From Schmidtea polychroa (lineage: Eukaryota): a DNA stretch of 64,000 bases. The DNA lies in contig CM097886.1 of assembly GCA_044892525.1 (NCBI GenBank), positions 163,668,312 to 163,732,311 of the forward strand, written 5' to 3'. The first letter of the stretch is position 1. The number at the start of each line of letters is the position of its first letter. The translations under genes and the position numbers were made by a program. Positions 30,855-62,404 of the stretch are shown here, piece after piece. The notes under the pieces were generated by a model, which had not been told where the DNA came from, made no database searches, and saw only the letters and a list, made by a program, of their open reading frames with translations.

Positions 30855-31154
30855 NNNNNNNNNNNNNNNNNNNNNNNNNNNNNNNNNNNNNNNNNNNNNN
30901 NNNNNNNNNNNNNNNNNNNNNNNNNNNNNNNNNNNNNNNNNNNNNNNNNNNNNNNNNNNNNNNNNNNNNNNNNNNNNNNNNNNNNNNNNNNNNNNNNNNN
31001 NNNNNNNNNNNNNNNNNNNNNNNNNNNNNNNNNNNNNNNNNNNNNNNNNNNNNNNNNNNNNNNNNNNNNNNNNNNNNNNNNNNNNNNNNNNNNNNNNNNN
31101 NNNNNNNNNNNNNNNNNNNNNNNNNNNNNNNNNNNNNNNNNNNNNNNNNNNNNN
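30855..31154. other. Assembly gap (N run) within the microsatellite region of the solo LTR
   Basis: N run flanked by AAT-rich repeats. Confidence 0.99.
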
Positions 31155-37496: not shown

Positions 37497-37572
37497 TACA
37501 CAAATAATGTTTATAATAATGATATAACTATTAAATATGGATTAATAATAATACTAATATTTAATACTACTA

Positions 37573-40464: not shown

Positions 40465-40816
40465 TAATAATTTAATTCTGAAAAAAAATCATAGAGTTAT
40501 TTGAAATATAATTCTTTTTAATTAGTAATTAAAATATTAAATTAACATAATCAAATAAAAATAAAATACAATTAAATGGGAAATTAATAAGTATCAAAAC
40601 CTGATAAAATCCTCCAGGCTTGGGCTACAGGTCAGACAGTGAATACAAAAGTGCAAGAAATTTAATCTGATAAGCAAGATTTGACCACTTTCAACTGACC
40701 GGATTCACCGGTCTAAAGCTAGGGTGTCACTTTCATGTGCAGCCACTGAAAAAATACAAATTAATTCTCTTCTATTATTTTTTACCTAATTTACAGGCTT
40801 CTTAAAGTGAACCCCT

Positions 40817-43800
40817 TGTTGGGCTAGAACTGATTTCTAAACCCAAAGTTAGGAATGGGACGAAATGTGTCAGTACACAACACGCATACCCAGCATTAAG
40901 TTTACTTAAATAAAAATATATAAAACACCAAGTAAACAATGATAATAGAGAGATAATATACCCAAAAATAAAACATCTGAATTAAAAATAAAATAAAACA
41001 CGAGCAAGAAGTATTACACGAAAACTTACTCAAATATAACCGAAAGACATAAAACAACAAAAAACAAATTCGAATAAAGGCAATTAGTAAAAATTAAAAA
41101 AAGAAAATTAAAGAAAATCTTCATAAAATCTTACGTAAAGAAAATTATATCGATATTTTGAATAAAAATCCAGAACAATTCATAAAAATGGCGAAATCCA
41201 TCATGACGGCCAAACGACCCAATAAAATTTATAAAAAATAAATATTTTAGTTTAAAAAATAAATATTTTAGAAAAGAAATCATAAAAAACAATTTAAAAA
41301 TAAGAAATAGATTAAATTTAGCATGGAATGTTCTGGAAATGCTGAAATCCATCATGGAGGCAAATTTAATAAAAAATAATTCGAAAATAAAATTTCAAAA
41401 ATAAAAACAAAAATTCTTACTGAAAAATCGCCATTAAAATCGATAAAAATTAAAAATCGAATGTTCGAGAATTAAAATAATTCGAATTTGTTTTACTGCA
41501 TCAATGCACGCATGTATACTTACACGTCAAACAGAGGCTATATAAACTAACACATTTCGTCACTTTGAAAGGAAGGAAAAAATGCAAATGAATATTTTTA
41601 CTCTTATGCCAAATTTTTGGTTTTGATTTTTCTGAGATTGTAGGTAAGGACGATTTCATTGTGAATTATAAATTATTATTATTGAAACCTTGTTTTCATT
41701 ATTTCTTTTTAACTATAGAAATGTAGGTTTGAGTGAGATCGTCGGTTATCATTGATTTTGAAGCGAGATCCCAGCCAACCCTGCACCTATGCACTTTATC
41801 ATCGATGAGTAAACAGCCTACAATGATTGCAGGCCACTGCCTGGCACGCACTTATCAATATTATTGGGTTTTTTTTTTGTTTGTTCAGGTCATTCGGAGG
41901 TCGCACCACTTCATGGTTCTGCCATGGAGTTAAGTCGATGAAATCCTCCGTCTGACTCTACCTATTTATTATAGGTCAGCCGTAAAGGGTTGACTTACCA
42001 CACAACAGTAAGGTTTGTCGTAGTGGTCACAGTGGGGCCGCGAAAGCAAACACTCTTCCCGACTTTCAATACATGAATAACTTACATAGTTAAAATCTAC
42101 ATCCAAAATCATCACAATACAATACACTAAGGTTAATAAACAGAGTAGATCTCAGACCTAAATTAATCACAACTCTACAATTCACAATTAATGTAGACGG
42201 TTAAATATCATCAAGAACCCACTCTACCTATACGTTTGTCGAATCTAGATTCATGAATGTCTTAAATAAATTTTTTTAGTAATAGTGTAAAGCAAAGATT
42301 TTTAAAGATGATTAATTTAGTAGTGATAGTATTCATAAAGGTGTTCGACATGCGCATCAGCAAGACTTGGATTTTAAATTGAATAGACTCTAAACTAACT
42401 ATAAAAATACCAATCGTAAACCCATAAAAGTATAAACTATCCTCTCAATTTCATAAAAATATGAATTATACTTATAGATTCAATTTCTTCAAAATATAAA
42501 TTATGATTAGTTATAAAAGTATAAATTATAAATTTAATTTCCTAAGAATATAAATTACAAATCTATATTGACGGTAAAATTATAAATTATAACTCTAAGT
42601 TAATTACAAAAGTATAAATTATAAAATTATATTAGCCTTAGAACATAAACTATAAATTTAACTTAACCTCATAAAAATATAAATTATAAACTTAAAAGTA
42701 TAAATTATAAAGTTATATTAGCTTTAAAAATATAAATTATAACCTTAACTTCATAAAAATATAAATTATAAAATTATATTGGCTTTAAAATATAAACCAT
42801 AAATTTAACTTCATAAAAATATAAATTATAAACTTAAAAATATAAATTATAAAATTATATTAGCTTTAGAAATATAAACTATGAATTGAACTTCACCAAA
42901 TATAAATTATAAACTTAAAAATATAAATTATAAAATTATATTAGCTTTAAAATATAAACCATAAAATTAGCTTCATAAAAATATAAATTATAAACTTAAA
43001 AATATAAATTATAAAATTATATTAGCTTTAGAAATATAAACTATAAATTGAACTTCACCAAATATAAATTATAAACTTAAAAGTATAAATTATAAAATTA
43101 TATTAGCTTTAAAATATAAACTATAAATTTAACTTAACTTAGATTGCCTTTAACATCATAGTTGAAAATTTTTCATCAAAGACCCCCCATAAACCATATA
43201 GTCATCAACTACCACCTAAATATACTAAATTAGCTTATCTTAATATACATTTAACTTATATTATATTTAAAACTATAAATTGTAAATTTTTATGAATGAC
43301 CCCCCTCAAAATCATACAGTCATTACCCATTACCTAAGCATACTAAATTGACTTATTTTTAATATATATTTAACTTACATTATAATAAAAAATATAAGTT
43401 GTAAAATTTCATGAATGACCCCCCTCAAAATCATACAGTCATTACCCATTATCTAAGCATACTAAATTGACTTATTTTTAATATATATTTAACTTACATT
43501 ATAATAAAAAATATAAGTTGTAAAATTTCATGAATGACCCCCTCAAAATTATACAGTCATTACCCATTACCTAAGTATTTTAAATTAACTTATCTTAATA
43601 TATATTTAACTTATATTATATTTTAAAATATAAATTGAAAATTTTCATAAATGACCCCCCTTCAAATCATGTAGCCATTAACTATTCCTTAGGTACACTA
43701 AATTATATCATCTTCGTATAGAGTTAAATTATATTTCAAATCAAACCAAAAAATAAATAATTCCATAATTTTCGCAAAAGATACTCCCATATGTGGGAAT

Positions 43801-45939
43801 CTTGTAAAAAAATAAACTTACATTTATTATTATTATTAACATTATTATTATTATCGTTATTAATATTATTATTATTATTATTACTATTATTATTATTATT
43901 AGTATTATTACCATTAACATTACCACTCTTATCATTATTATTACTATTATCATTACTATTATTATTATATTATTAAAATAATTATCTTTATTTCAAAAAA
44001 TAAAATTATAAAACCGATTATTGATTTTGGGATTCCCCTATCTCTAAATTTAGTCTCAATGGCCCTATCTTCCAATAAAGTTACGGAAAATCACTAAAAT
44101 CTATTTTTAGTAACACCCCCCCCGGAAAACGACATCAATATTATTAATTTAAATTATATCCATATATAGGTATGTGTGTATATGTATATGTATATATATA
44201 TGTGTGTGTATATATATGTGTGTGTGTGTATGTACATACAGATTTATAAAGCAACCTTATAAAAATACGATAACCTTCCCCCTCAAGACCCCTGTTATGT
44301 GATGGTCACAACCCCCTTAAGGTGATGGAGCGAGGTTAGAGTAGTTTACTGAAGTAATTTAGTAGAATCATTTATTGATTTATTAGAATTATTGGATTTA
44401 TTTTTAACTAAATCAAAAGAGACTAAATTTATTTTTAACTAGATCAAAAAAAAAGAAAAACAAAGACTAAGTTTATTGATTTCGATCATCAACTTTATTC
44501 ATATAATTGTTTCTTTGAATCATAGTTATACCAAGGTCCTTCGAGCACGGTTGATGGACCATCCCAATGAAATACATTTCCTGGAGTTGGAAGACTTCTG
44601 GATAATTCCTTATTTTCTGCTTCGTTCCTTTTGGTTCAATGACTTACATATTGATTTGACGTAATATTGTTGGATGGCCAACTATATTCCTTGCATCTCT
44701 TTTTGAGTAGTCATTGTCAGATAATTCCGCCAGGAAGATTAGTTGGTGGAACTGACCTTGGGGCAATCAAACCTTCGTACCTCACTGAATTATTATCAAC
44801 TCGATTGCTAAGGAAATTAATGAAGTTAATTAATTAAATTAAGGAAGTTAATTACAATTTTCTCATTGGTGTTGTCAAATGATCTTTGCTCATTCGAGAT
44901 GTCATAATACATTATTGATCAATAGTAATTGTTCGGAGATTCGGCCAAATGCTGATATTCCTGAAATATTATGAAATTTTAGGATATAAATGCTTAAAAT
45001 TTTAATTTATTTACATTATTATATCAAAGTTAACTAAAATCATATATTTATTCAAAATTTGTTATTTAACATTAATTATAATTACTATAATAAAACAACG
45101 AAAATTTAAATAATGTTAAATAACTTTAACAAAACAAAAAGTAATAATGAAATCAAAATTCCATTACTTTATTTAAATTATTAGTTACCAACTTGTTCTA
45201 GTATTTTAACCTAATGAATTCAAGTATATTACGGAGTTAGTTTGGTCGTTTGAGGAATATTATAAATTGAAAATTTAAGTAGATTAGAATTATTTACTCT
45301 TCATAAGAACTTTTATGATTGTAATGAATCTAAACTTCATATATTAATATTACCCATAATTTACAAGTGATATTTGGATTATGTTAAAATAGGTTGTAAG
45401 TTAACTTAACTAAATTGAAATTTTCTTTTGATCAGGTTATCGTGGGGAATGCATGTTATCTTTATCATTTCTATTGTTTCAGTTTATTAAGTTTTTTTTT
45501 TATTTTCTAATTAAATTCATTAGTCTCAAAAATTTCTTGAGGTTTGTTTAATAAACTATGGTTATGTTTCACTTAATTTATATTCAAACATTTTAGATGT
45601 GGTGTTGTATGAACAGGCTTTAATAGAGTAATGTATGATTCCTGATGACTTATGATCGTTTGAGGATAGAAAGTTTGTATAGGCATAGTTGAGGAAGTGA
45701 TTATAATAAGGGACCTGCGTAAATCGGACATACATCTTCTAACGATAGTCCGTGAACCCATTAGAGTGCTCGACAATTACAGTGCAAGTAGTGCGCTCAC
45801 TTTTTGCGAGTACTCACCGTCTTGATACAGTACCAACGTTGATCGTTCAACGGGTATCAAGCGGTAAACAATGTTGTATCTTGGGTTACGCTGGTAACAG
45901 CACTAAAGAGCAAAATATTTGATCATCAGTAACCCACCA
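40817..45939 (+). repeat. 5' LTR (5,123 bp)
   Basis: TGTTGGG...CCCACCA. Contains an AT minisatellite (about 42430-43130), about five 119-bp units (about 43140-43740), (ATT)n and (TA/TG)n tracts. Confidence 0.96.
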
Positions 45940-45947
45940 TACAAATT

Positions 45948-45965
45948 TGGGGGCTCAGCCGGGAT
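45948..45965 (+). promoter_or_regulatory. Primer-binding site for tRNA-Pro
   Basis: TGGGGGCTCAGCCGGGAT matches the classic tRNA-Pro PBS TGGGGGCTCGTCCGGGAT at 16 of 18 positions; 8 nt downstream of the LTR end. Confidence 0.85.
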
Positions 45966-46827
45966 ATTTAAACTTTCTTGGTAAAGAACCTGTAAGTAGA
46001 CGGGAATGCATAGCAGTTTTTTGATCAGGAAATGAAATGCTTTATGCAAGAGTAAGAAAGATTGTTTTCTCAAATAACTAGACATGATGTGTGAATATGC
46101 GTGTATGATCAAAATGAATGTTGAATGTTGTACATGATGAATAAAATGTTTTAAATTATGTAAATATAGAAAATCGATAAAACTGGGTATGAGAATAATG
46201 TATGAGCGTTCCGTGTTGATGGGACAGAATGTTGATGGGTAAGAAATGAAATAAAAATCAAAAATAATAAAAATTGTAAATATAAACAACTAATACTTTG
46301 GATATAAGAAAATAATAAAAAATTCAAAAATAGGGAAAAGGGGGGGAATAGAAAATAACGGTATAAAGAAAAAGGGGATAAAGCATAAAACAGTGAATTG
46401 CGAAATAGAAATAGATAGATGATGCAATTAATTAAAAATAGGGGGAAGATGTAAAACTACGTTAAAGATTAAAGGGGTATATTGAGTATTTGATAAAATG
46501 ACTAAAATTATGGACAAGCTGGGATCAAAAGGGTTATGTAGACTAAGATAATAAACTAGATGGAACGGATAAGAATGCGCGGAACATCATTTAATGGATT
46601 GGGAGCCTAAACTAACAGGGTAAAACAGCTATTGAACTTACATAATTTGAATAAGGAAATAAATGTGTAGAGGTAAGCTAATTAAAGGGGAATAAGAACA
46701 CTTAATAAAATGCTGAATTAATAAAGTATAACTTGATGGAATTAACCGGCTACATTATAAAGAAACTTGAAAATTCGTAAATTTAACTAACAACTCACTA
46801 CAAAGATTGAATTGAAAAGCAGAGCAG

Positions 46828-47206
46828 TTGGCAAACACTCAAGAAGGGCTGATCTTAAAACCAAGACCAGTAGATGATGAATTGTGTATAATGATGAGAA
46901 TTGCTACACCAAATGTGGAATTAACTACTCAAAGAGTATATCAGATTCAGAATTTACGTTTAGATAAGGCCAAATTTAACATCAAATGGCAAGAATTAAA
47001 GATAAAAATTTAAACGGTTGAAGATGCGATAAGAGAGGCGATCGATAATGAATTCAAAGGTTGTGTGTGTAGAAGCAATGAGATAAAAATAATGATGGTA
47101 CCTTGCGGACATCTATGTTATTGCCAAGATTGTGCATTGAAACTGAAGCGATTGTAATGTATGTGACGCAAACATGAGAGAAAGAGTAGTAGTGTACCTC
47201 CCTGAG
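46828..47206 (+). pseudogene. Decayed ORF ending in a C3HC4 RING finger (IAP/MGRN1-like C-terminal RING)
   Basis: After an in-frame TAA (47011-47013) the frame reads GCVCRSNEIKIMMVPCGHLCYCQDCALKLKR; a +1 shift then gives CNVCDANMRERVVVYLP. Confidence 0.8.
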
Positions 47207-48632
47207 GGAGATGTAGAAAAATTGAAGATGATGAAATGAATTGCAGCCGAGTGTGAGTTAGTAGAATGTTAGTAAAACTAATTCCATAATAGCAACCGAA
47301 AGGTATAAAACATACGTTGAACATAGACATATGAAATACACAAAAGCCGTTAAATAAATAGACAAGCAACACACAAATTAAATTGGCGAAAGCCGTGAAT
47401 TAAATACAGGACTGGCTGGGATCGCATCAAGTGTGAGCTGATCTATAAGATCAGTACGATTACCATTTTTTTTTTCCTGTTTTTTTTTTTATTTTTGGCA
47501 TAGAGAGACAGGACCATAAGGGGATGAGAAGCATATCGTCCCTACGATGCTTACCCGGATGGGGAAATCCTGATCACCTTGATGAGAAGAGTATAGTAGG
47601 GCCCATCGCAAATGTTGGGGAGTTTCTGTCGAGTGACTGATCACCACTTGTGGGAAATGAACCAACGCGATTATTATATTTTTTGAATTTGGGAGACAAG
47701 GACAAACTAGAAGGTAAATAAAAAGAAAAAGATAAAAAATAAAAATTGAAAAGGTGCACCAAAAGATAAAAATTTTAATTATCCGAGAGCAGCTGCGGAT
47801 TTGAAGAAACCGTTTTTGGACTTCAAATTGGATGATATGAATTTTTCCCTAGCGAGTGATGAGGCACCCGAGTACAGCGGCTAACCACCGGACTGTAGTG
47901 TCCAGGAGATTATCAGCCAAGGGACTGATGATGCTGGATCACCCAATACAAAAACCCGGATACCCACACCGAGTATTGGGTGCATTTTTTTTTGATTGGC
48001 TAGCGGGACTTGATACAAAAACCCGGAAGGGTAGCGAGCGAGAGAGACCCAGTTACCTACACCGAGTATTAAGGAGCCCAGTGAAACGGTTGTGAGATGC
48101 GGGTCAACCGGTAAAGGACTCGTACTCAACAGGCAACCAAGATTGGACCAGTTGTGAGGCGGGAGACCGAGAGTCAACTGCATATCCAATTTCCTTTTAT
48201 CTTCACTAGTCGGGAGATCTGGTTCATCACTTTTGAGAATCAAGATCGAGGCGATTAGGCATTTCCGTGTTTTTTAAATCCTGATAGATAGGATGTTTTT
48301 TTCTTCGTGATTATTGCTAGCAGGGGTCGGTACAAAACCCGGATGCCCACACCGAGTACCGATAGGCCCAGTGAAACGGCGATGAGATTAGGGTTACCGG
48401 TATTAAACTCTTTTCAATAGGCGGCCAAGAATTGAGCTAGTTGTGAGGCCTCAGCAGATTAATAATTTGAGTAGGAGGAACCTTAAATTTTTAATTGGTC
48501 CGAAAGTCAACTGTCAACTCAATTTAATCGCGGTAGGGACGATAGTAGGTGTAAAAACTGAAGGCGTCTGGGGGTTGAAGAAACCTCATTTAGGGCATTT
48601 GAAACCGATCAGGGACCGAAGACCGCGAATAC

Positions 48633-49120
48633 GGCGTAAAGGTGTAAAAGCCCAGGCGTCTAGGAGTCGTAAAAGACTTCAAAGATTAAAAGTATAATTA
48701 AACCGGCCGGAAGCCGATGCCGACGCGGAGGTCTAATAAACCGAAGCGTTGATGGTTGATAGTGAATTATATGGCGTAATGGTGTAAATACCCAGGCGTC
48801 TAGGAGTCGTAAAAGACTTCGGAGATTAAAAGTATAATTAAACCGGCCGGAAGCCGATGCCGACGCGGAGGTCGAATAAACCGAAGCGTTGATGGTTGAT
48901 AGTGAATTATATGGCGTAATGGTGTTAAAGCCCAGGCGTCTAGGAGTCGTAAAAGACTTCATGAGATTAAAATGAGTTGATTAAACCGGCCAGAGAGCCG
49001 ATGGTAATTGAATGAAAATAAATGATTTAAATGAAATAAGAGAGGTGATTAAACCAGCCAGGGAGCCGATGGTAAATAAATGTAGACGTAGAGGTCGCGC
49101 GAACCGAAGCGTCGATGATT
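48633..49120. repeat. 140-bp tandem repeat (2 full copies plus decaying copies) in the leader upstream of gag
   Basis: GGCGTAA.GGTGT...CCCAGGCGTCTAGGAGTCGTAAAAGACTTC starts at 48633, 48773 and 48913. Confidence 0.9.
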
Positions 49121-49830
49121 AACTATGAACGAAATAAAAGAGATAAACGATTAAGATGAAATCGATTAAATTGACATAGATTAAGTGCGACAAAGAGGTA
49201 ATGATTAAAGGAAAATTATGATAGAGCGCCGGCGCAAGAGAAAATGAAACCAAATTTTTGAATGGGGAAAAGCGAATGAGGAGATATTAATTAAGTTACT
49301 GATGAGTTTTATATGTATATGACTAATGATATATATTTTTGAATTATATAATTGATGTGGTGATTATACGATAGATAATTGATACGACGATATAGATAAT
49401 TGATACGAGTTATAGATAATTAAAAATGGACTTAAATTCAAAGGGGGGTGAGTAGCAAAAAGTAAAAGCGTACCATGAATTAGAAAAGGAACAGCGAGAG
49501 AAATAATGAGTAAAGAGTAGTATAAAATAAAGAAAATAGGGAAATAAATGAAGGGTAGGATAAAATGAATAAAATATTATGATATGTACTAGGAGTGTTA
49601 ATTATTTTAGAATAAGTCAATCAATAAGTCAGAAGGAAGTCAATACAAGCCAAGAATTCAAGAGAAATAAAGAGAAATCAAAAATTCAAAAGAAAACAAA
49701 TAAGGAATCAAGAGAATCAAACGAGGATAGAAGAAAGGTAAACAAAGTCAAATTAAATACCAAGAGGAAAATTAAAGCGTTGGCCAACGAAACACAGTGA
49801 AATTCAAAAGAGATTATTAAAGCGAGAAAG

Positions 49831-51393
49831 ATGGATAAAAAAGCCAATCGAACGAGATTGCAGAGTAAAGGAGGCTCTAGTTTATTAGGAAACGCAGAGA
49901 GACAAAGAGCCAAGAGAAACAGAAGAATCAATAAGAAACCAGCGCCAGTGAAAACATTATTTGAATCAGACAGCTTAACCAACGAAGGTGAAAACAGCGA
50001 CGATATTAAAAGAAACGAATTATATCCGGTAACTGATATCAAACCAACAGACAAGGAAGATAGTAGTTCAGGCATGACAAGTTCGTGTCGAGATATAATG
50101 TTAGACGGAAACCAAGTGAACAACCCGAATGGGTCAGAGTTGACATACACACCAGAGATAAACCATGTTAATGTCAATGTTGGAGAACTTAGAGAAAGAT
50201 TTCGAGGAGAACCATTCGATGGGAATATTAATGAACTAGAAACGTTTATAAAAGAATTCGAGGTATATATTACAATATGTCACTGGCCAGACATAGTCGT
50301 ACGAGAGCGAATACCATTATATTTAAGAGGAAGTGCACAAGATGTATATTTAGAGGCAAAGTGTGATGCAACAAAACTAAAAACATGGAAATCAATAAAG
50401 AATTTTTTAATAAAAACATTCGGTAGCAAAAGGGAAGTAAATCGCAAAATGTTGGATTTTCTGCATCGAAAGCAGAAATACAATAAGTCAAACGCTCTAT
50501 ATGCATGTGAATTAAGACGACTGGCAAAAGAAGCATTCGATTCAAATCAAACAGTTCCGGAAGACAAGATAATAGCCGTATTCGTAGAGGGTATGAAAAG
50601 AAAGGACATACGAGCAACAGTGGGGTGCCGAGCACCAGACACGCTCGAGGAAGCATTAAAAATCGCTAATAAATGTGAAAACTACTTGACTCCAGTACAA
50701 GTAGCAGCAATGGCAGCAGTACCAATAGCTACAACACCAACAACGACAACCGAAATTAATCAAACCAACAATGGAAATCTAGGAATGAATCAATTTATCT
50801 CAGAATCGCAACAGTTGTTCAAGGCGCCAAAAATGACAAATCCAGATAACAGAGGTAATATTCAATTTTATACTAATAATTTCAGGAACAACGAGAACAA
50901 TAATCGGAAGTGTAACATATGTCAACGACTAGGACATTGGAGCAACGAGTGTTATAAGACAAGGATGTGCCAAAATTGCGGTAAAAGGGGTCACACAGAA
51001 AATATATGCCGAGGACCAATGATGTCGATGAGAGGAGGAAGGACTAGAACCTGCTACAGTTGCAACCAACTTGGACATGTGGCGAGAGAATGCGCGATGA
51101 AGACAAAACATAATCAACCAAGAGCAAACGATCCAAGTCAAAATATACAAATCAACATCATGCAGAAAATTGAACAGTCGAAAAAGATGATCCAACGGAT
51201 ACCAGAGGATATCCGGAAACGACCAACAAGAGAACAACAAGACCAGCAACGAATCGAAGGGCAGAGACCACTAAACGAAAAAGCCAGAGAAATTCAAAAA
51301 AAGATGGAAAAAGCGAGAAACCAACACCGGAAGAATAAATATGATGAGATCAATGAACAAAGGGGAACCGCACACTGCGGAGCAGTGTGTTAA
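49831..51393 (+). CDS. gag: Ty3/gypsy-type Gag, 520 aa, with three CCHC zinc knuckles
   Basis: Capsid-like FIKEFE...IPLYLRGSAQDVY...TWKSIKNFL...FVEGM...TLEEALKIA; knuckles CNICQRLGHWSNEC, CQNCGKRGHTENIC and CYSCNQLGHVAREC. Confidence 0.92.
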   Translation: MDKKANRTRLQSKGGSSLLGNAERQRAKRNRRINKKPAPVKTLFESDSLTNEGENSDDIKRNELYPVTDIKPTDKEDSSSGMTSSCRDIMLDGNQVNNPNGSELTYTPEINHVNVNVGELRERFRGEPFDGNINELETFIKEFEVYITICHWPDIVVRERIPLYLRGSAQDVYLEAKCDATKLKTWKSIKNFLIKTFGSKREVNRKMLDFLHRKQKYNKSNALYACELRRLAKEAFDSNQTVPEDKIIAVFVEGMKRKDIRATVGCRAPDTLEEALKIANKCENYLTPVQVAAMAAVPIATTPTTTTEINQTNNGNLGMNQFISESQQLFKAPKMTNPDNRGNIQFYTNNFRNNENNNRKCNICQRLGHWSNECYKTRMCQNCGKRGHTENICRGPMMSMRGGRTRTCYSCNQLGHVARECAMKTKHNQPRANDPSQNIQINIMQKIEQSKKMIQRIPEDIRKRPTREQQDQQRIEGQRPLNEKAREIQKKMEKARNQHRKNKYDEINEQRGTAHCGAVC

Positions 51394-54300
51394 CAAGGAA
51401 GGGAGCGATATAACCGTAATCAACGAGACGAAAGCGATAAAAGAAAATGGGTCACATCAATTGACGGAGCAATTGACAGAACTGAGTAGCGAGGATAAAA
51501 TAAAAATAATACAAGAGTTCACCAAAGAGGAAAAAGAAAAAAAGAGACGAAGAAGTGATGAAACAGGGCACGAACCAAAAAGCAACGAGATTGTTACAAA
51601 GAATCGAATTCAGAGGGTATTACTACAAAAAATTGAAGATAGAATTAGAAGAGAAGAACCAAATTTAACGGATGAGCAAGTAAAAGAAAAAGTAAAAGAC
51701 AACTGGTTCAGGAAAAATGAGTGGTTCGAAAAGAAAGAACCAAGTAACAGAGCCAATATAAACATGCTGAGACAAATACAGAAGGATCAGACGGACCAGG
51801 AAGACGAGAAAAGTACGATGAGTAGTCTGAGAAGTGCATTATCTCAATCAAGTGATGAAAATAATGAACAAGGAACACCTCAAAATAACGAAGAGGGTGA
51901 GAGCGACGATATGAAATCACTGATAGAAAATGACGATGAGGAAATATTTGAGGAAATTTCCGACACGGTATCGGAAAGAGAACGAAATGAGAGCTATATC
52001 AACGAACCAACATACAGAAAATGTATAAAACTGATAACTCAAGCATACCAGTGGGAAGGAGATATATTAACGGCAACATGGAAAGATTTGGTGACGAAAT
52101 ATAAAGGAAAATTGAAAGAAGTTGATCCAGATCAATACCAAGTAAGTATTCAACACCCTGAAACTCAGATACAGATTATTGAATTAAAAGTAACAAATAC
52201 CGATAAACTGTATAATTGGGTACAACAAAAGATGGGAACAAGTCATAAAAATAAACAGCTATACGACAATGGTTATAAAGTTAAAACGAGCATACATTTA
52301 GTAGATGTGATGATATGGCCAAACGAAGTTAATATCTTAATCTTAAAGAAAAACAGAGACAACGAATCAGTAACGGAAATACTGAGAAAAATCCAACAGA
52401 TATTCAACAATGAAGTGGAACCAGAAATAGAAAAGATTGAACGAAAGATTATGAAGGAAAATCAAATAATCTTAGTAAAACAAGCAATCGATCAAACGAA
52501 GAAATATATTAACAGATTTAGGGAAAGATGGCCGCAGCTAATGAAACAGTTTGTCAAAGACGTACGGGGTACTGAGATTATGGGATTTGAATATAAACGA
52601 ACAACGGAGTTGATATCAAAATATGGTGAATACGAGAGAATCAGATGTGAACAAGAATTACCATGGCCATCCAATAGAAAAGTGACAATAGTAAAAGAAT
52701 CACTGAAGAATAGTCATTTAGATAAACACGAAGAAATGATCAAAACATCACATGTCGAAGACGACATTTTTGGAAAAGGCCGTAGTGGAAAAAATGACAA
52801 AGACCATAACGACAAAAATGAGGAAGACGACGGGAACCATGAAAGGAACAACATAAATGGGAATTCAGGCGAACGATATAATAAAGAAGACAAGGAGTCA
52901 GAAGATGACGACGAAGACTTGAAGGATACTGAGGACAACTCAGACCAAAGTGAAGACAACCAACATAATGAAACAGAGAACGACAAACGAAAATCCCCAC
53001 TGCATAACATAGTAATGCGGAAGAATCCAAATCAGTCACTCCTACTACAAATTATCCTAATAATACTAACGTCAATTTGCCTAACAGAAACGAAAAATAC
53101 GCGAATTACGAGAAGAAATCTGAAAGAAGGCGAACTATTCATGATAAAAGTCAGCGGTAACGACGGAAACGCGGTCGGGATATGCATCCAATTGATGGAA
53201 GGAACCGGAGTAAGTTGTGATTTTAGAACGATAACAAAAGGGAGGATTTTCAATAGTCAAAATGGAGAAACTGAATTATGCGGAGACTACAACATTTGCG
53301 AAGACATAACATCAGAAGAAAAAGAATTGGAAAGAGCTAACGAAACCGGAGTACACCTCGCAATTAAAGCTACAATGGAAGGTATCGAAATAATAGATAA
53401 AGGAAATTTGCCAACAACGCAAATATGTTTTAGAGATGACGAAGACATATGTATAACGGTGGACATGAAACGAGATCGCGAATTTTTTTGGACAAACGTA
53501 AAACCAAACACCAACATGGTGGTATGCGCAGGTACCCAGGCAATAGTGGTATGTAAAGCAGTTAAAACCGCGCAAATAAAAAGCAGGCCAAAAAGTATGG
53601 CTAGTAAACGATATCAACCAAGGATCAAACCGGCAATTAAGAAACCCCAGAAACAATCCCGTACGGGAATGATAAGAGGACAGCACCAAACCAAGAAAAA
53701 CACAACAGTAAAATGGATCAAAGATGAGAGACGAGAAGTACTAGTAAATGTCGAATTCAACAAGAAAAGAGAAGAAGTAATCACGGTCAGAAACCAAGGT
53801 GAAGAACCAATAGTAAGAGTATGTGTACTAAACAGGACAGGAATAGTCGACTGCATAGAAGCACTACTTGACAAAGGTGCAGAAGTTAAAATGACAATAG
53901 GAGAAAGAAAGGGACGATACCACATATGCGTTCTTAAAAACGGAAGCGATTTAAGTTCATGCCAAGCAATAACCAGACAACGACCACGGTTGATAAACAT
54001 ACCATTGGCAACCAGAAAACCAAAAGAAGTGGAAAAGCCAAAAGGAAACGAACATCTAACGGCAGAAGAAACGAAACAGTTATACCAGATGCTCAAGAAA
54101 AATAAAACACAGGAGGCAACTACAACAGAAACTAAAATGATGATGACGACAGGAAAATTCAACAACAAGACACTGATAACCGTTAAAATGATGTGGATCG
54201 CTAGCGCAATAATGAGTGCAGTGATAACATCAATAATAATCCAATGGATAAGAACCTCCAAAATATGTAAACAAAAACCTAAAGGCAGAAAAAAATGGCC

Positions 54301-54523
54301 ACAAGTGGAGAATTCCGAATATGGTATTCCAACAGAAAACCAGAATCCAGAAGAGTACGAAGCGATTGAAGATCCAAGGTCAAGCAGACTATGGACGCAA
54401 AAATTACTCAGAATACAAACCCTAGACGATTGGGTAAACGAATTTGACATATACCGGCTAACGGATGAAAGATATGGGGGAATGCGCACATTGCATTCAG
54501 GTCCCCTGGCAACAATGGTATAA
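51341..54523 (+). CDS. ORF2, 1,060 aa: charged N-half, internal signal-like segment, three 4-Cys repeats, C-terminal TM helix and tail (env-like position, unknown family)
   Basis: Uninterrupted 3.2-kb ORF. Hydrophobic LLLQIILIILTSICL follows the Met at 53015, then RITRR; TM-like MMWIASAIMSAVITSIIIQWI at about 54190-54250. Confidence 0.85.
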   Translation: MMRSMNKGEPHTAEQCVNKEGSDITVINETKAIKENGSHQLTEQLTELSSEDKIKIIQEFTKEEKEKKRRRSDETGHEPKSNEIVTKNRIQRVLLQKIEDRIRREEPNLTDEQVKEKVKDNWFRKNEWFEKKEPSNRANINMLRQIQKDQTDQEDEKSTMSSLRSALSQSSDENNEQGTPQNNEEGESDDMKSLIENDDEEIFEEISDTVSERERNESYINEPTYRKCIKLITQAYQWEGDILTATWKDLVTKYKGKLKEVDPDQYQVSIQHPETQIQIIELKVTNTDKLYNWVQQKMGTSHKNKQLYDNGYKVKTSIHLVDVMIWPNEVNILILKKNRDNESVTEILRKIQQIFNNEVEPEIEKIERKIMKENQIILVKQAIDQTKKYINRFRERWPQLMKQFVKDVRGTEIMGFEYKRTTELISKYGEYERIRCEQELPWPSNRKVTIVKESLKNSHLDKHEEMIKTSHVEDDIFGKGRSGKNDKDHNDKNEEDDGNHERNNINGNSGERYNKEDKESEDDDEDLKDTEDNSDQSEDNQHNETENDKRKSPLHNIVMRKNPNQSLLLQIILIILTSICLTETKNTRITRRNLKEGELFMIKVSGNDGNAVGICIQLMEGTGVSCDFRTITKGRIFNSQNGETELCGDYNICEDITSEEKELERANETGVHLAIKATMEGIEIIDKGNLPTTQICFRDDEDICITVDMKRDREFFWTNVKPNTNMVVCAGTQAIVVCKAVKTAQIKSRPKSMASKRYQPRIKPAIKKPQKQSRTGMIRGQHQTKKNTTVKWIKDERREVLVNVEFNKKREEVITVRNQGEEPIVRVCVLNRTGIVDCIEALLDKGAEVKMTIGERKGRYHICVLKNGSDLSSCQAITRQRPRLINIPLATRKPKEVEKPKGNEHLTAEETKQLYQMLKKNKTQEATTTETKMMMTTGKFNNKTLITVKMMWIASAIMSAVITSIIIQWIRTSKICKQKPKGRKKWPQVENSEYGIPTENQNPEEYEAIEDPRSSRLWTQKLLRIQTLDDWVNEFDIYRLTDERYGGMRTLHSGPLATMV

Positions 54524-54599
54524 GAAAGTGATGAGTCGATGTAAATAGTGTGTATATAAACGTGAGGGTAAAAGTAGTTTAGTAGATTAGTAATATGTT

Positions 54600-54600
<1 letters not shown>

Positions 54601-54633
<33 letters not shown>

Positions 54634-54647
54634 CAAAAAAAAAAAAA
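54601..54647 (+). repeat. Poly(A) tracts (A30, GTAC, A13) downstream of ORF2
   Basis: Seen directly, 77 nt after the ORF2 stop. Confidence 0.95.
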
Positions 54648-54669
54648 TGGGTATGATAACTACGTATTG

Positions 54670-55758
54670 TAAATAAGAAATGAATCAGAGAAACGAGGAT
54701 CAAGTATATCAAACGAGGATACCACATGTTGTTGAATTGGGAAATCAACCACTAGTAAACATTAATCAGACATAAATAGTAGAAATTGATACAAGTACAA
54801 CGATAAACCAACCAAGTTAGTCAGCAGGATCAATGTGAATAACACAATGTGAATTAATATCAAATGACAAACCATACCCATGAATATCGGTTACGTAATT
54901 AGAATGCGTTAATGGAGAGCATCAATAGAAACTCGATATATGTAACAAGAATAAAAGAGCAACAACAAATAATCGCACAATAAGAATACAATAACAAACA
55001 GTTGATAAGCCAAATAAAATGGTAGACAGGAGAAATCAGGAGATTACGCGAAGACCGTCAGCATGATGATATCACGAGTTAAGTTGAGTGGATAACCGAC
55101 CTACCAGGAACTGGGGAACCGGACTCAACAGGAGAGACATAAAAGAAGGGAAAGTAGCCCTGTAAACAAACAAAATTATAGCCAAAGTAGAAGCTCCGAG
55201 ATTAAACGCTATCATGGCAGAATGCCGAGAGAAAGTGGAGAGAAGTGGAGGAACAAAACTATTAACTATGAGCTGAAAAGAAAATATTAGGTCAAGTCAG
55301 ATGAATTCGAGGAGAGACTATTGTGTGCGGACAAAGATTATTAATAAGAGCACGTCAAACCCTATATGGATGTAGATTATGCCATGGAGGTACTACACGA
55401 CTTGTAACAAGAAAAGCAGAAGTTAAAGAGAGAACCACAGCAAGAATCAGCCACACCCCAGATGACAATAATAATAAAAATCTTAGAAGAAATAAAGCAG
55501 AAAATAATGATGACTGTCAACGAATGTCCGAGCAACTATGAAACAAAGACGCTCGAAGAAATAAAGGAAAGGGTAAATAACGCAGTCAAAGAAAAGCTAA
55601 TTACTCAAGATGAAAAAATAAAAACATTGAGAGAGATATAGATGGAAATAATAACAACTATGAACAAAATCCCGATGAACCATGAGACAATGACCAAAAC
55701 GTTAGAAGGAATAAAAATGAGAATATCAACTACCTTCAACGCAGACTTCGTATACTAA
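54670..55758 (+). pseudogene. Decayed third ORF region (coiled-coil-like)
   Basis: Codon-like stretch, e.g. VKPYMDVDYAMEVLHDL*QEKQKLKRE...LEEIKERVNNAVKEKL...FNADFVY*, with several stops and shifts. Confidence 0.4.
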
Positions 55759-55811
55759 AATGTCCTAATAAAGATGCTCATGGAAATCTAGAAAGGAGTA
55801 ATGACAACTGT

Positions 55812-55812
<1 letters not shown>

Positions 55813-55846
<34 letters not shown>
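55813..55846 (+). repeat. Poly(A)34 tract
   Basis: Seen directly; AATAAA at 55767-55772 upstream. Confidence 0.95.
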
Positions 55847-55849
<3 letters not shown>

Positions 55850-56269
55850 ACACACTAAATCAAATAACCTCGAAGAAGAACTCAACTCGACTGATACAAT
55901 CCAACTAATTAAAACAGTGAGCATGTGACGAGAGCTAAAGAAAGAAGTGACAATCAAAACAAGGGCAGCAGAAGAAGAAAAAAAATTTGAATGTAAAGAA
56001 AACCCCGAATCCATAACAGTACCGATCCTGTTAACAGCGAATCTCATGATAAATAACAATACTGAGCTTGATAGCCCTTAATCCCACTCAAATCCATGAA
56101 AGTACAAAAACTCAAGTTGAAAGAACAATTCCGAAGCATTCGCATTCTAATAGAAGAACCAATACCCAGAGACTAAATCTATCAAATCTATCTTCTACAA
56201 CCTTCAAATCTAGAGCCGTCATCGAGATGGGATCCCGAACAACCAAGTATTTAAATCCTGATATAAACC

Positions 56270-56480
56270 GACAATGATCCTGATATAATATGACAACAAT
56301 CTTGAGTTGATTGACAATGTTCTTATCATGTGTTGACAATGATCCTGATTCAATTGACAATGATCTGAAAATGATTTATGTGTTGAAAATGATCCCGATT
56401 CGATTGACAATGATCTGAAAATGATCTAGATGTGATTTAACAATGATCCTGACATGATTCGACAATGATATGATTTGACT
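56270..56480. repeat. Minisatellite of GACAATGATC-core units in the 3' UTR
   Basis: Repeated (T)TGACAATGATC(C/T) motif. Confidence 0.75.
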
Positions 56481-56781
56481 ATTATTGTGATTTGATGCCA
56501 ATATTATATATTACTTTGATATTATTTGAGCATAACAATTTAATTAAATTTTGTGTGGACCGACCGTGGTCTTCTTTCTCTTCATCTTTAAACCAATCTG
56601 TAGCATGTAGCGTATCAGTAGAAACTTTTTATGTATGTGGGTATTGAGGTCACGACCCTGTAGCTCGTGGACCCAATTACATGTAGGCACTTGTAATACA
56701 GTGCAACCAATTCTGTCTAATTATATCTTGAACTTTTGATTAAATTGCGGGTCGCAATTTTATGGGCCCCCGAGTGTTTTA

Positions 56782-59700
56782 TGTTGGGCTAGAACTGATT
56801 TCTAAACCCAAAGTTAGGAATGGGACGAAATGTGTCAGTACACAACACGCATACCCAGCATTAAGTTTACTTAAATAAAAATATATAAAACACCAAGTAA
56901 ACAATGATAATAGAGAGATAATATACCCAAAAATAAAACATCTGAATTAAAAATAAAATAAAACACGAGCAAGAAGTATTACACGAAAACTTACTCAAAT
57001 ATAACCGAAAGACATAAAACAACAAAAAACAAATTCGAATAAAGGCAATTAGTAAAAATTAAAAAAAGAAAATTAAAGAAAATCTTCATAAAATCTTACG
57101 TAAAGAAAATTATATCGATATTTTGAATAAAAATCCAGAACAATTCATAAAAATGGCGAAATCCATCATGACGGCCAAACGACCCAATAAAATTTATAAA
57201 AAATAAATATTTTAGTTTAAAAAATAAATATTTTAGAAAAGAAATCATAAAAAACAATTTAAAAATAAGAAATAGATTAAATTTAGCATGGAATGTTCTG
57301 GAAATGCTGAAATCCATCATGGAGGCAAATTTAATAAAAAATAATTCGAAAATAAAATTTCAAAAATAAAAACAAAAATTCTTACTGAAAAATCGCCATT
57401 AAAATCGATAAAAATTAAAAATCGAATGTTCGAGAATTAAAATAATTCGAATTTGTTTTACTGCATCAATGCACGCATGTATACTTACACGTCAAACAGA
57501 GGCTATATAAACTAACACATTTCGTCACTTTGAAAGGAAGGAAAAAATGCAAATGAATATTTTTACTCTTATGCCAAATTTTTGGTTTTGATTTTTCTGA
57601 GATTGTAGGTAAGGACGATTTCATTGTGAATTATAAATTATTATTATTGAAACCTTGTTTTCATTATTTCTTTTTAACTATAGAAATGTAGGTTTGAGTG
57701 AGATCGTCGGTTATCATTGATTTTGAAGCGAGATCCCAGCCAACCCTGCACCTATGCACTTTATCATCGATGAGTAAACAGCCTACAATGATTGCAGGCC
57801 ACTGCCTGGCACGCACTTATCAATATTATTGGGTTTTTTTTTTGTTTGTTCAGGTCATTCGGAGGTCGCACCACTTCATGGTTCTGCCATGGAGTTAAGT
57901 CGATGAAATCCTCCGTCTGACTCTACCTATTTATTATAGGTCAGCCGTAAAGGGTTGACTTACCACACAACAGTAAGGTTTGTCGTAGTGGTCACAGTGG
58001 GGCCGCGAAAGCAAACACTCTTCCCGACTTTCAATACATGAATAACTTACATAGTTAAAATCTACATCCAAAATCATCACAATACAATACACTAAGGTTA
58101 ATAAACAGAGTAGATCTCAGACCTAAATTAATCACAACTCTACAATTCACAATTAATGTAGACGGTTAAATATCATCAAGAACCCACTCTACCTATACGT
58201 TTGTCGAATCTAGATTCATGAATGTCTTAAATAAATTTTTTTAGTAATAGTGTAAAGCAAAGATTTTTAAAGATGATTAATTTAGTAGTGATAGTATTCA
58301 TAAAGGTGTTCGACATGCGCATCAGCAAGACTTGGATTTTAAATTGAATAGACTCTAAACTAACTATAAAAATACCAATCGTAAACCCATAAAAGTATAA
58401 ACTATCCTCTCAATTTCATAAAAATATGAATTATACTTATAGATTCAATTTCTTCAAAATATAAATTATGATTAGTTATAAAAGTATAAATTATAAATTT
58501 AATTTCCTAAGAATATAAATTACAAATCTATATTGACGGTAAAATTATAAATTATAACTCTAAGTTAATTACAAAAGTATAAATTATAAAATTATATTAG
58601 CCTTAGAACATAAACTATAAATTTAACTTAACCTCATAAAAATATAAATTATAAACTTAAAAGTATAAATTATAAAGTTATATTAGCTTTAAAAATATAA
58701 ATTATAACCTTAACTTCATAAAAATATAAATTATAAAATTATATTGGCTTTAAAATATAAACCATAAATTTAACTTCATAAAAATATAAATTATAAACTT
58801 AAAAATATAAATTATAAAATTATATTAGCTTTAGAAATATAAACTATGAATTGAACTTCACCAAATATAAATTATAAACTTAAAAATATAAATTATAAAA
58901 TTATATTAGCTTTAAAATATAAACCATAAAATTAGCTTCATAAAAATATAAATTATAAACTTAAAAATATAAATTATAAAATTATATTAGCTTTAGAAAT
59001 ATAAACTATAAATTGAACTTCACCAAATATAAATTATAAACTTAAAAGTATAAATTATAAAATTATATTAGCTTTAAAATATAAACTATAAATTTAACTT
59101 AACTTAGATTGCCTTTAACATCATAGTTGAAAATTTTTCATCAAAGACCCCCCATAAACCATATAGTCATCAACTACCACCTAAATATACTAAATTAGCT
59201 TATCTTAATATACATTTAACTTATATTATATTTAAAACTATAAATTGTAAATTTTTATGAATGACCCCCCTCAAAATCATACAGTCATTACCCATTACCT
59301 AAGCATACTAAATTGACTTATTTTTAATATATATTTAACTTACATTATAATAAAAAATATAAGTTGTAAAATTTCATGAATGACCCCCCTCAAAATCATA
59401 CAGTCATTACCCATTATCTAAGCATACTAAATTGACTTATTTTTAATATATATTTAACTTACATTATAATAAAAAATATAAGTTGTAAAATTTCATGAAT
59501 GACCCCCTCAAAATTATACAGTCATTACCCATTACCTAAGTATTTTAAATTAACTTATCTTAATATATATTTAACTTATATTATATTTTAAAATATAAAT
59601 TGAAAATTTTCATAAATGACCCCCCTTCAAATCATGTAGCCATTAACTATTCCTTAGGTACACTAAATTATATCATCTTCGTATAGAGTTAAATTATATT

Positions 59701-61904
59701 TCAAATCAAACCAAAAAATAAATAATTCCATAATTTTCGCAAAAGATACTCCCATATGTGGGAATCTTGTAAAAAAATAAACTTACATTTATTATTATTA
59801 TTAACATTATTATTATTATCGTTATTAATATTATTATTATTATTATTACTATTATTATTATTATTAGTATTATTACCATTAACATTACCACTCTTATCAT
59901 TATTATTACTATTATCATTACTATTATTATTATATTATTAAAATAATTATCTTTATTTCAAAAAATAAAATTATAAAACCGATTATTGATTTTGGGATTC
60001 CCCTATCTCTAAATTTAGTCTCAATGGCCCTATCTTCCAATAAAGTTACGGAAAATCACTAAAATCTATTTTTAGTAACACCCCCCCCGGAAAACGACAT
60101 CAATATTATTAATTTAAATTATATCCATATATAGGTATGTGTGTATATGTATATGTATATATATATGTGTGTGTATATATATGTGTGTGTGTGTATGTAC
60201 ATACAGATTTATAAAGCAACCTTATAAAAATACGATAACCTTCCCCCTCAAGACCCCTGTTATGTGATGGTCACAACCCCCTTAAGGTGATGGAGCGAGG
60301 TTAGAGTAGTTTACTGAAGTAATTTAGTAGAATCATTTATTGATTTATTAGAATTATTGGATTTATTTTTAACTAAATCAAAAGAGACTAAATTTATTTT
60401 TAACTAGATCAAAAAAAAAGAAAAACAAAGACTAAGTTTATTGATTTCGATCATCAACTTTATTCATATAATTGTTTCTTTGAATCATAGTTATACCAAG
60501 GTCCTTCGAGCACGGTTGATGGACCATCCCAATGAAATACATTTCCTGGAGTTGGAAGACTTCTGGATAATTCCTTATTTTCTGCTTCGTTCCTTTTGGT
60601 TCAATGACTTACATATTGATTTGACGTAATATTGTTGGATGGCCAACTATATTCCTTGCATCTCTTTTTGAGTAGTCATTGTCAGATAATTCCGCCAGGA
60701 AGATTAGTTGGTGGAACTGACCTTGGGGCAATCAAACCTTCGTACCTCACTGAATTATTATCAACTCGATTGCTAAGGAAATTAATGAAGTTAATTAATT
60801 AAATTAAGGAAGTTAATTACAATTTTCTCATTGGTGTTGTCAAATGATCTTTGCTCATTCGAGATGTCATAATACATTATTGATCAATAGTAATTGTTCG
60901 GAGATTCGGCCAAATGCTGATATTCCTGAAATATTATGAAATTTTAGGATATAAATGCTTAAAATTTTAATTTATTTACATTATTATATCAAAGTTAACT
61001 AAAATCATATATTTATTCAAAATTTGTTATTTAACATTAATTATAATTACTATAATAAAACAACGAAAATTTAAATAATGTTAAATAACTTTAACAAAAC
61101 AAAAAGTAATAATGAAATCAAAATTCCATTACTTTATTTAAATTATTAGTTACCAACTTGTTCTAGTATTTTAACCTAATGAATTCAAGTATATTACGGA
61201 GTTAGTTTGGTCGTTTGAGGAATATTATAAATTGAAAATTTAAGTAGATTAGAATTATTTACTCTTCATAAGAACTTTTATGATTGTAATGAATCTAAAC
61301 TTCATATATTAATATTACCCATAATTTACAAGTGATATTTGGATTATGTTAAAATAGGTTGTAAGTTAACTTAACTAAATTGAAATTTTCTTTTGATCAG
61401 GTTATCGTGGGGAATGCATGTTATCTTTATCATTTCTATTGTTTCAGTTTATTAAGTTTTTTTTTTATTTTCTAATTAAATTCATTAGTCTCAAAAATTT
61501 CTTGAGGTTTGTTTAATAAACTATGGTTATGTTTCACTTAATTTATATTCAAACATTTTAGATGTGGTGTTGTATGAACAGGCTTTAATAGAGTAATGTA
61601 TGATTCCTGATGACTTATGATCGTTTGAGGATAGAAAGTTTGTATAGGCATAGTTGAGGAAGTGATTATAATAAGGGACCTGCGTAAATCGGACATACAT
61701 CTTCTAACGATAGTCCGTGAACCCATTAGAGTGCTCGACAATTACAGTGCAAGTAGTGCGCTCACTTTTTGCGAGTACTCACCGTCTTGATACAGTACCA
61801 ACGTTGATCGTTCAACGGGTATCAAGCGGTAAACAATGTTGTATCTTGGGTTACGCTGGTAACAGCACTAAAGAGCAAAATATTTGATCATCAGTAACCC
61901 ACCA
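56782..61904 (+). repeat. 3' LTR (5,123 bp), no differences from the 5' LTR seen
   Basis: All five shared ORF-track landmarks sit at offset 15,965 with identical translations; both termini match. Confidence 0.96.
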
Positions 61905-62404
61905 CCCTGTTGACATTTTCAGAAGACAATTCTCTAACGGTAGCAAATACAAAGTCTTCAAATTTATCAGTTCCGACTGGCACTTTACGGTGTGCAAAAA
62001 TCATATTTAAAGTTTTAAGGAAATTATTCAGAGTATTTTCTTATGAATTTATTATTTGTATTTATAAAGAACACGAGGAGTCAGAACAAAGTTCTAATTT
62101 TACCAAGATTTCTTATAAATCAAACATCTCCAAAACATTTTTTATCGCTTACATAATAGCCATGGTACATCAAGAGTGAATAAATGATATTCATCAAGTG
62201 AAAGAAAGGGTCCTCTCTAAAAATATTACTTATCCTCAGTAATTATTGATAATTCATACAGGCCTAGACTTATTCCAGGAACAATGGAACTGGTCGGATT
62301 AAAACAAACGATTTCTTAAATTTATTAATAAAATTAATTAATTTCAAATTGCCTCGAATCATCACTGTTATCGTAATTATATATTAATTAATCATAAGTA
62401 AAAA

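Follow-up and report, generated by a model that had tools for sequence, protein, structure and literature searches.

A pol-less, gag-retaining element family of Schmidtea polychroa, a probable deletion derivative of a Burro1-type giant retroelement

The planarian element Burro1 (GYPSM1) has been described as more than 30 kb long, with long terminal repeats (LTRs) of about 5 kb, a 4,873-aa polyprotein in which env lies between gag and the protease (PR), and an open reading frame (ORF) with a BIR domain (PMC6431247, section 7). BCL2-like, SUMO-like and dUTPase-like segments of Burro1 have been described from HHpred (PMC6431247), and its IAP protein has been reported to protect planarian stem cells or aid regeneration (PMC13465017). 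LTR elements that keep gag and are non-autonomous are already known; in mouse IAP 1-delta-1 an in-frame deletion created a Gag fusion that aids retrotransposition in cis while enzymes are supplied in trans, giving a highly active subfamily (Saito et al. 2008, cited in PMC7411935). The element reported here occupies positions 40817 to 61904, plus strand, of a 64,000-nt stretch of the Schmidtea polychroa genome (the window; assembly GCA_044892525.1, contig CM097886.1, positions 163,668,312 to 163,732,311 of the forward strand). It belongs to the non-autonomous LTR class as a Burro1-type derivative and is not an autonomous Burro1. Comparison of its sequence with related copies indicates, with good confidence, that it is one copy of a multi-copy deletion derivative without env, pol and IAP, which is likely copied in trans and whose own Gag likely acts in cis.

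The pol-less family and its autonomous partner

The window element is about 21 kb long, with two 5,123-bp LTRs (TG...CA; 40817..45939 and 56782..61904) that do not show a single difference, an interior of 10,842 bp and CCCT on both sides as the target-site duplication (TSD; 40813..40816 and 61905..61908). The primer-binding site (PBS; 45948..45965, plus strand) starts 8 nt past the 5' LTR and is a perfect complement over 18 of 18 nt to the 3' end plus CCA of this genome's tRNA-Pro(TGG), as found by pattern search and ARAGORN. A conserved 3' block (56526..56781) occupies the position of the plus-strand primer site, and no classic purine tract was found in it before the 3' LTR. Paired LTRs, TG...CA ends, TSD and PBS together make the element an LTR retrotransposon. 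The host genome comprises 781 Mb, with four large contigs, and the window has about 30% GC. Genes for tRNA-Pro(TGG), the primer of the element, occur in tandem arrays with a period of 475 bp at C1:130.90-130.95 Mb, and the tRNA-Pro 3'-end pattern has 2,164 exact matches across the genome.

The gag region begins with a Met codon at 49831 and encodes 520 aa in the window copy (49831..51393, plus strand), including a capsid at about 50170-50690 (Pfam Ty3_capsid, E 1.7e-7) and three CCHC knuckles at 50911-51100. It is followed by a 1,060-aa frame with its Met at 51341, which has no meaningful Pfam match. Among the 110 sibling copies found in the best 150 of 2,745 candidates of a capsid search, 55 carry both parts as one stop-free frame of 1,565-1,580 codons. 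Since they lie in a single frame in the siblings, they are counted as one protein of 1,562 aa, of which the downstream part (51275..54523, plus strand) comprises the Gag linker, a scrap of a MATH domain, an acidic stretch and a membrane tail. The window copy is split by a frameshift within an A-run near 51,290 that is absent from every other copy examined and may be a mutation or a homopolymer error. No match to Env, PR, reverse transcriptase (RT), RNase H or integrase (IN) was found in the interior by Pfam in both frames or by tblastn with the polyprotein of the partner described below, and with these and the BIR domain missing the element does not qualify as an autonomous Burro1.

An 18-mer across the first deletion junction has 111 exact matches in the genome (reversed control, 0); this count, like those of 173 and 354 given below, is an exact-match lower bound. 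The best 150 of the 2,745 capsid candidates form two classes, 110 at 95-100% identity and 40 at 88%. None of the former lies in a frame longer than 1,580 codons, and 24 of the 40 latter lie in frames of 4,672-4,812 codons. The same two classes were recovered among the best 150 matches to the membrane tail (108 at 88-100%, 42 at 67-70%). Copies of the first class are referred to here as satellites, and 73 of them were examined, over 10 kb in 53 cases and over the 4.75-kb frame in 20. None of the 73 has a match to env or pol; 68 show the first-junction motif within the sequence examined, and two interrupted copies end short of the junction.

Twelve siblings were read whole, 11 with a layout like that of the window copy and one further deleted; with the window copy included, all 13 full-length copies have a 4-bp TSD of their own. 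The pol matches in two of the 12 sibling stretches are on the opposite strand, outside the LTRs. For the 12 satellites with two whole LTRs (window copy included), LTR mismatches number 0, 0, 0, 0, 1, 1, 1, 4, 11, 26 and 34, the remaining copy being a chimera. Both deletion junctions are also crossed by a 1,380-nt contig from an independent run, X5, the RNA nature of which is a guess. The element belongs to a non-autonomous family. The satellite with 26 LTR mismatches, the most diverged of those read, differs at its U5 end and lacks about 1.27 kb of the leader island described below, and another copy consists of the tail and the 3' part of the satellite interior only, without gag or junction. 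Pairs of satellite Gag matches about 16 kb apart on one strand were seen at C1:85.87/85.89, C1:199.55/199.57, C2:16.29/16.31, C2:77.92/77.93 and C3:62.47/62.48 Mb, a spacing equal to that of tandem LTR-interior-LTR-interior-LTR copies.

Two copies of the 88% class were read whole. They are 35 kb long, with LTRs of 4,755 and 5,047 bp (pairs 99.98 and 99.94% identical), 4-bp TSDs and, in both, a 4,791-aa polyprotein with the Pfam order Gag zinc knuckles, MATH, Monjiviricetes_fusion (E 2e-68), protease, RT, RNase H, integrase and ankyrin. The Gag piece was scored by zf-CCHC, its capsid being recognised by identity to the window Gag. The polyprotein is followed by a TRAF-like ORF, a BIR-RING (IAP) ORF, two coiled-coil ORFs and one of 341 codons, and an intact 160-codon RING ORF lies in the leader. 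A 23-mer from RT has 173 exact genome matches, and the 3' junction common to both classes has 354. A length above 30 kb, LTRs of about 5 kb, a single polyprotein of about 4,800 aa, a three-knuckle Gag, the domain order and the BIR ORF are all as described for Burro1. The BCL2-like, SUMO-like and dUTPase-like segments are not among the Pfam matches at E 0.1, and no published Burro protein was found in the searched sequence collections, the assignment being made by the described layout. The two copies show 311 differences in 14,373 coding bases, and their LTRs agree at the ends (80-87%) but have unrelated central parts, so that this family contains at least two types of LTR.

Satellite and 35-kb element agree in the outermost LTR sequence (17 nt at the start, 13 nt at the end), in the 8-nt spacer and the PBS that follow the 5' LTR (compared with helper copy A1), in the 35 nt leading up to the 3' LTR and in the length of the TSD, 4 bp. 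The 3' block is 86% identical between them, its final 35 nt completely so, and the LTR interiors are 45-79% alike (best blocks 68-79%). Judged from these sequences, the partner is a giant Ty3/gypsy element of the Burro1 type whose ends, PBS and 3' junction match those of the satellite; it is hereafter called the helper.

The satellite retains helper residues 1-967 (up to the end of the Gag linker), a 30-codon MATH scrap (about 1250-1278) and residues about 4197-4791 (the membrane tail), all joined in frame, the two junctions flanking the scrap at 52649..52735. The first deletion junction was placed at a 5-nt microhomology, and about 9.9 kb of helper sequence is missing around the scrap, covering MATH, Env, PR, RT, RNase H, IN and ankyrin. 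A second gap of about 5.5 kb follows a broken start of the TRAF-like ORF (55186..55421) and has taken the rest of that ORF, the BIR-RING IAP and both coiled-coil ORFs. A broken remnant of the last, 341-codon ORF lies at 55411..56250. The leader RING ORF persists as a pseudogene (46771..47203) with stops and a frameshift common to copies, and in the window copy both the RING and the TRAF-like ('ORF3') remnants carry stops and frameshifts. All 47 copies covering the site carry the TRAF stop, and 42 of 45 carry the RING frame break, so that the remaining accessory genes were inherited as pseudogenes. The true Env and the BIR-RING IAP are both among the deleted parts. The Monjiviricetes_fusion match corresponds to helper residues about 2175-2500, inside the deleted stretch, and the retained tail shows no such homology.

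A previous sequence-only reading of the window had described the 5,123-bp LTRs, the CCCT TSD and the tRNA-Pro PBS, all borne out by LTR alignment, pattern search and ARAGORN, as well as the 520-aa Gag, the 1,060-aa 'ORF2' and an interior without pol, which Pfam and tblastn confirm; the profile search for RT and IN that it had suggested gave no pol match. Its view of a non-autonomous element and not a lone deletion agrees with the 111 junction matches, the 13 independent TSDs and the X5 contig, and genome-wide mapping gave at least 111 pol-less copies. The autonomous partner for which it had proposed to look, with matching LTR termini and PBS and an intact pol, exists in the 35-kb element, and its comparison with Burro proved right as far as the description in PMC6431247 goes. 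It was also correct that the RING and ORF3 lesions predate the last transposition. Its ORF2 is indeed a membrane-protein frame, although neither a separate gene nor the envelope protein, the fusion glycoprotein lying in the deleted part.

Sequence exchange, selection and the retained tail

Between satellite and helper, synonymous divergence amounts to about 0.9-1.1 for gag, 1.9-2.4 for the tail and more than 2 for the RING remnant, yet a leader island at 47700..49200 is 90-98% identical between them. Across 21 helpers and 47 satellites, positions 48100-48899 contain no fixed difference, whereas the flanks, where covered, have 11-66 per 200 bp. Three of these helpers carry a satellite-type haplotype in the island. 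Helper tracts occur in turn in the satellites, a 22-site tract at 47593-47766 in one and a tract at about 48560-48880 in three. As to direction, transfer from satellite to helper and repeated transfer from a minor helper haplotype to the satellites fit equally well. The island contains many frameshifting indels common to copies and is for that reason regarded as non-coding. It is a candidate packaging or dimerisation signal, a function that seems slightly better placed than the alternative of a splice or initiation element. Within it are 2.7 copies of a 140-bp repeat (48629-49003), each with a CCGGCC(GG) palindrome that is a candidate dimer-initiation site.

In the chimeric copy mentioned above, located at C2:80.59-80.62 Mb and flanked by a single TSD, the 5' LTR is of the helper type, and the interior and 3' LTR are of the satellite type. 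Its 5' LTR is 97-100% identical to the helper across the final 300 nt, and the switch falls within a 38-nt stretch of U5 end and PBS. This is the site of plus-strand transfer in the established retroviral mechanism, so that a particle containing both helper and satellite RNA would be the simplest reading. Mosaic leaders and the LTR chimera would then provide genetic evidence for two-RNA particles of Burro1-type elements.

Selection was assessed by comparing single-copy variants, which are mostly post-insertion, with variants found in at least two copies, using a mutation spectrum from the non-coding parts of the element. The test included 68 of the 73 copies, 28 of them intact, in a sample enriched on purpose for suspected shared lesions; five interrupted or incomplete copies were excluded. 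Uncorrected ratios of nonsynonymous to synonymous change (dN/dS) and a first sample of 47 copies had overstated selection, since 30 of those 47 were intact as against the 55 of 110 noted above, and were replaced after 20 broken copies had been added, several of them chosen for resembling shared lesions. In the Gag part, variants confined to one copy behave neutrally (dN/dS 1.19; 18 stops against 17.7 expected), and tail single-copy counts are probably inflated by misalignment in one interrupted copy. Among shared variants, stops number 5 against 28.2 expected over the whole frame (P 1e-7), 0 against 6.2 in the Gag core, codons 11-440 (P 0.002), and 2 against 12.8 in the linker. Variants in six or more copies include no stops against 13.3 expected, with a dN/dS of 0.46 over codons 11-440 (P 0.02), and the shared-variant dN/dS of the capsid is 0.44 (P 0.03). 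Stops are purged from shared variants while single-copy variants are neutral, so that copies with an intact Gag core of their own are favoured in transposition; an intact remainder of the frame matters less.

The membrane tail combines an internal signal-peptide-like hydrophobic segment (53036..53092, predicted from hydropathy only), three four-cysteine modules (53132-53299, 53348-53563 and 53735-53971; overall 53132..53971), six N-glycosylation sequons and one predicted transmembrane helix (54188..54244) with about 90 aa after it. All 12 cysteines are retained in the helper and in 46-47 of 47 satellite copies. From an eight-row alignment, the fold of the third module was predicted with a pLDDT of 90 and seven strands, and it resembles generic immunoglobulin (Ig)-like sandwiches (best VIA Z 9.4, 1.9 A, 71 of 79 residues). 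When assignment to a family or ligand was attempted, its top fold matches were tied and mutually unrelated. Modules 1 and 2 are called Ig-like by alignment only. The retained tail is therefore predicted to be an Ig-like type I membrane protein, the C-terminal tail of the helper polyprotein. Three word-index searches gave no sequence homologue of the tail, and no solved structure was found by sequence. Six weak full-library matches (four ankyrin-repeat, one Calx-beta and one unannotated) were judged to be spurious sums of weak stretches, and a single-sequence fold of the whole ectodomain (pLDDT 38) was worthless. Four hydrophobic peaks of the helper polyprotein, at residues 1892, 2474, 4301 and 4688, predict on hydropathy alone a topology of signal-Env-transmembrane, cytoplasmic Pol and signal-Ig-transmembrane. 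The annotation of the polyprotein C-terminus thereby gains a predicted Ig-like membrane protein.

Propagation of the satellite and rival explanations

The mechanism favoured here starts from the family and its deletions, the helper, the shared ends, recent insertions in both families, the sequence exchange and the purging of stops from the Gag core. The family would descend from a sister lineage of Burro1 whose separation from the present helper long preceded the loss of pol. The satellite would be transcribed from its own LTR and its Gag translated, while the helper would supply PR, RT and IN within its single polyprotein. As these enzymes come as part of one polyprotein, satellite Gag would need to co-assemble with helper Gag or polyprotein, the satellite RNA being packaged beside helper RNA and enzymes; the capsids are 88-89% identical. 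Reverse transcription would be primed by tRNA-Pro, helper IN would integrate the product with a 4-bp TSD, and template switching would keep the leader island matched to the helper. The in-frame deletion could also have moved the C-terminal membrane anchor of Gag from the Env signal segment to that of the Ig-like tail, an idea that is possible but doubtful. The tail may be a passenger, and a weak case can be made that it rides along largely unselected.

Several observations weigh against parts of this reading. The examined sample covers about 73 of the 110 copies. Folding of the island RNA is no better than that of shuffles (z -0.56 over 801 nt), and one old satellite copy lacks about 1.27 kb of the island. 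Only one LTR chimera was seen in the 40 best of 2,110 candidates, and it may come from gene conversion or mis-assembly, and DNA-level gene conversion could likewise be the source of the mosaic tracts. The tail shows no clear amino-acid constraint (shared stops 3 against 6.1 expected, P 0.15; dN/dS 1.04). Lesions shared by groups of two to five copies trace to eight events, the first along the frame at codon 499, and one such group is four copies that make a 529-aa Gag alone and resemble the window copy; since broken copies transmit in small groups, the full frame is favoured and not required. Five of the eight shared lesions fall after the signal segment (P 0.06), or four of seven without a doubly broken group (P 0.13), which hints, as a lead only, that Gag gains from reaching a membrane anchor. 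Between-family dN/dS (0.05-0.3) was rejected as proof of selection after pol loss: the RING pseudogene is equally low (0.06-0.10), and most divergence arose while the parent was still coding, which makes this measure uninformative for the pol-less phase. One of 53 sliding windows across the island, at 47890, reached z -3.4 and was not counted as evidence of structure.

Measured against the sequence-only reading of a satellite that borrows Pol, the pol-less family, the co-resident helper and the selected capsid fit, and its surface protein is the tail of the polyprotein and not Env. The retention of Gag is accompanied by selection on codons 11-440. The comparison of dN/dS that it had called for across copies points to constraint on the capsid; for the membrane tail within 'ORF2' no clear selection during the pol-less phase was found.

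Of the alternatives, the one that survives best, although improbable, is that the element is mobilised in trans and its protein is idle, the frame staying open because translated RNA free of stops lasts longer or is directed to the site of assembly. Constraint is modest (shared-variant dN/dS 0.75 over the Gag part, and 1.04 in the tail) despite strong purging of stops that extends to the linker, and the Gag-only copies have reached four loci, both as an idle protein would allow. The capsid dN/dS of 0.44 and the value of 0.46 among variants in six or more copies argue for a protein that is used, however, and no shared lesion lies before codon 499; a tolerance of late stops is not predicted by RNA decay alone.

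Gag-based restriction has precedents in Ty1 p22 and in endogenous retroviral Gag restriction factors, and the host might tolerate or favour the satellite as a defective-interfering brake whose Gag dilutes helper particles and competes for Pol. The ratio of at least 111 satellite to at least 173 helper copies, the capsid identity and the whole frame kept by half of the copies (55 of 110, among the best 150 of 2,745) would suit this explanation. The neutrality of single-copy variants places selection at the transposition step and not on resident copies, as selection at the host level needs, and we consider the brake quite unlikely.

Somewhat less credible still is spread by the family's own pol-bearing parent, now lost or unassembled, with the mosaics produced by DNA-level gene conversion. 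The synonymous divergence of gag and tail does imply that the parent was a distinct lineage, the LTR interiors differ widely, and the Gag search scored only the best 150 of 2,745 candidates. Four of the 12 satellites have no LTR mismatches, however, so that a supply of enzymes exists at present; among the best 150 Gag or tail matches, none was intermediate between the satellite and helper classes; and the 38-nt interval of the chimera switch is short for gene conversion and lies exactly at the strand-transfer site. A lone post-insertion deletion or an assembly collapse is refuted by the 111 junction matches, 13 of 13 independent TSDs and the independent contig over both junctions.

Copying in trans with help from the satellite's own Gag remains the preferred reading, and its broadest form can be offered as speculation that will rather probably prove wrong: a satellite of an endogenous enveloped retroelement, with Gag re-anchored to the membrane through a hitherto unannotated Ig-like second surface protein, co-assembling with the helper, its packaging signal kept matched by recurrent recombination, cheating on a mutualism as a passenger without the anti-apoptotic IAP, and setting Burro1 load as a defective-interfering particle. 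Satellites make up about 40% of the Burro1-type copies (at least 111 against at least 173). A co-active IAP-less family at about this ratio makes cheater invasion of a host-transposon mutualism testable. The satellite also amounts to a natural deletion mapping of the 35-kb Burro1-type element: the passenger keeps termini, PBS, a 1.5-kb island, the Gag core and the 3' block, and the kept parts are thus a pointer to the packaging signal. Probes for Burro1 based on gag or the LTR would mix helper and satellite families.

Neighbouring elements and comparison with known systems

Other repeats surround the element in the window. An older Burro1-type solo LTR (27603-33290, minus strand) matches the helper LTR at 82-83% identity over two long blocks and still has recognisable termini at both ends, and further Burro-LTR-like fragments (2089-2420 and 8214-8474, plus strand) lie around a gypsy pol fragment at about 1890-8770. 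A 2.5-kb inverted repeat of 94% identity (4445-6893 and 19123-21606) consists of the pol region of a small gypsy element in two copies. Gag-PR-RT-IN-like frames, read by eye (ORFs 19353-23869 and 24709-25584, both minus), belong to the copy on the minus strand, which also has a 293-bp direct repeat (19123-19415 and 23833-24125) that resembles its LTRs. Also present are two related ORFs of about 650-670 codons (9303-11315 plus and 35610-37541 minus), a 651-codon ORF (15904-17856 plus) and a 250-codon frame (25512-26261 plus) that resembles a piece of a piggyBac transposase.

Neither a non-autonomous Burro family nor an Ig-like membrane protein at the C-terminus is described in section 7 of PMC6431247. 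Passages of PMC11410931, PMC8532177 and PMC13465017 likewise describe no pol-less Burro family, although Grohme 2018, Lee 2026 or Repbase-type libraries may list one. Compared with Burro1/GYPSM1, the window element shares the helper's Gag, termini, PBS and C-terminal tail, and its family lacks MATH, Env, all enzymes, ankyrin and IAP (PMC6431247).

The mouse IAP 1-delta-1 subfamily is comparable in being the product of an in-frame internal deletion, with Gag help in cis and enzymes from full-length copies (PMC7411935). It is a retrovirus of about one-third of the size and makes a Gag-Pol fusion rather than a Gag-membrane tail, and its help in cis has been shown by experiment (PMC7411935), whereas that of the window family is indicated by population genetics. 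Plant TR-GAG elements similarly keep LTRs, PBS and gag, have lost pol, and show tandem three-LTR copies and template switching (PMC13570524). They differ in being plant elements of smaller size, often without a traceable partner, with no env-bearing helper and no lost cargo of benefit to the host (PMC13570524). A kept and selected gag frame, by which TR-GAG elements are recognised, is present here, with 55 of 110 copies fully open among the best 150 of 2,745 candidates and no shared stops in the Gag core against 6.2 expected.

Exchange between partner families has also been encountered elsewhere, and LTR swapping in soybean was reportedly described by Du et al. in 2010. In non-autonomous pararetroviruses of grasses a non-coding region is kept matched to the partner by region-specific recombination, as it is here (PMC5491270), and such matching has been found in another case as well (PMC6894440). 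Unlike in those partner systems, the matched region of the satellite is an internal leader island, and the LTR interiors are family-specific, with one single LTR swap.

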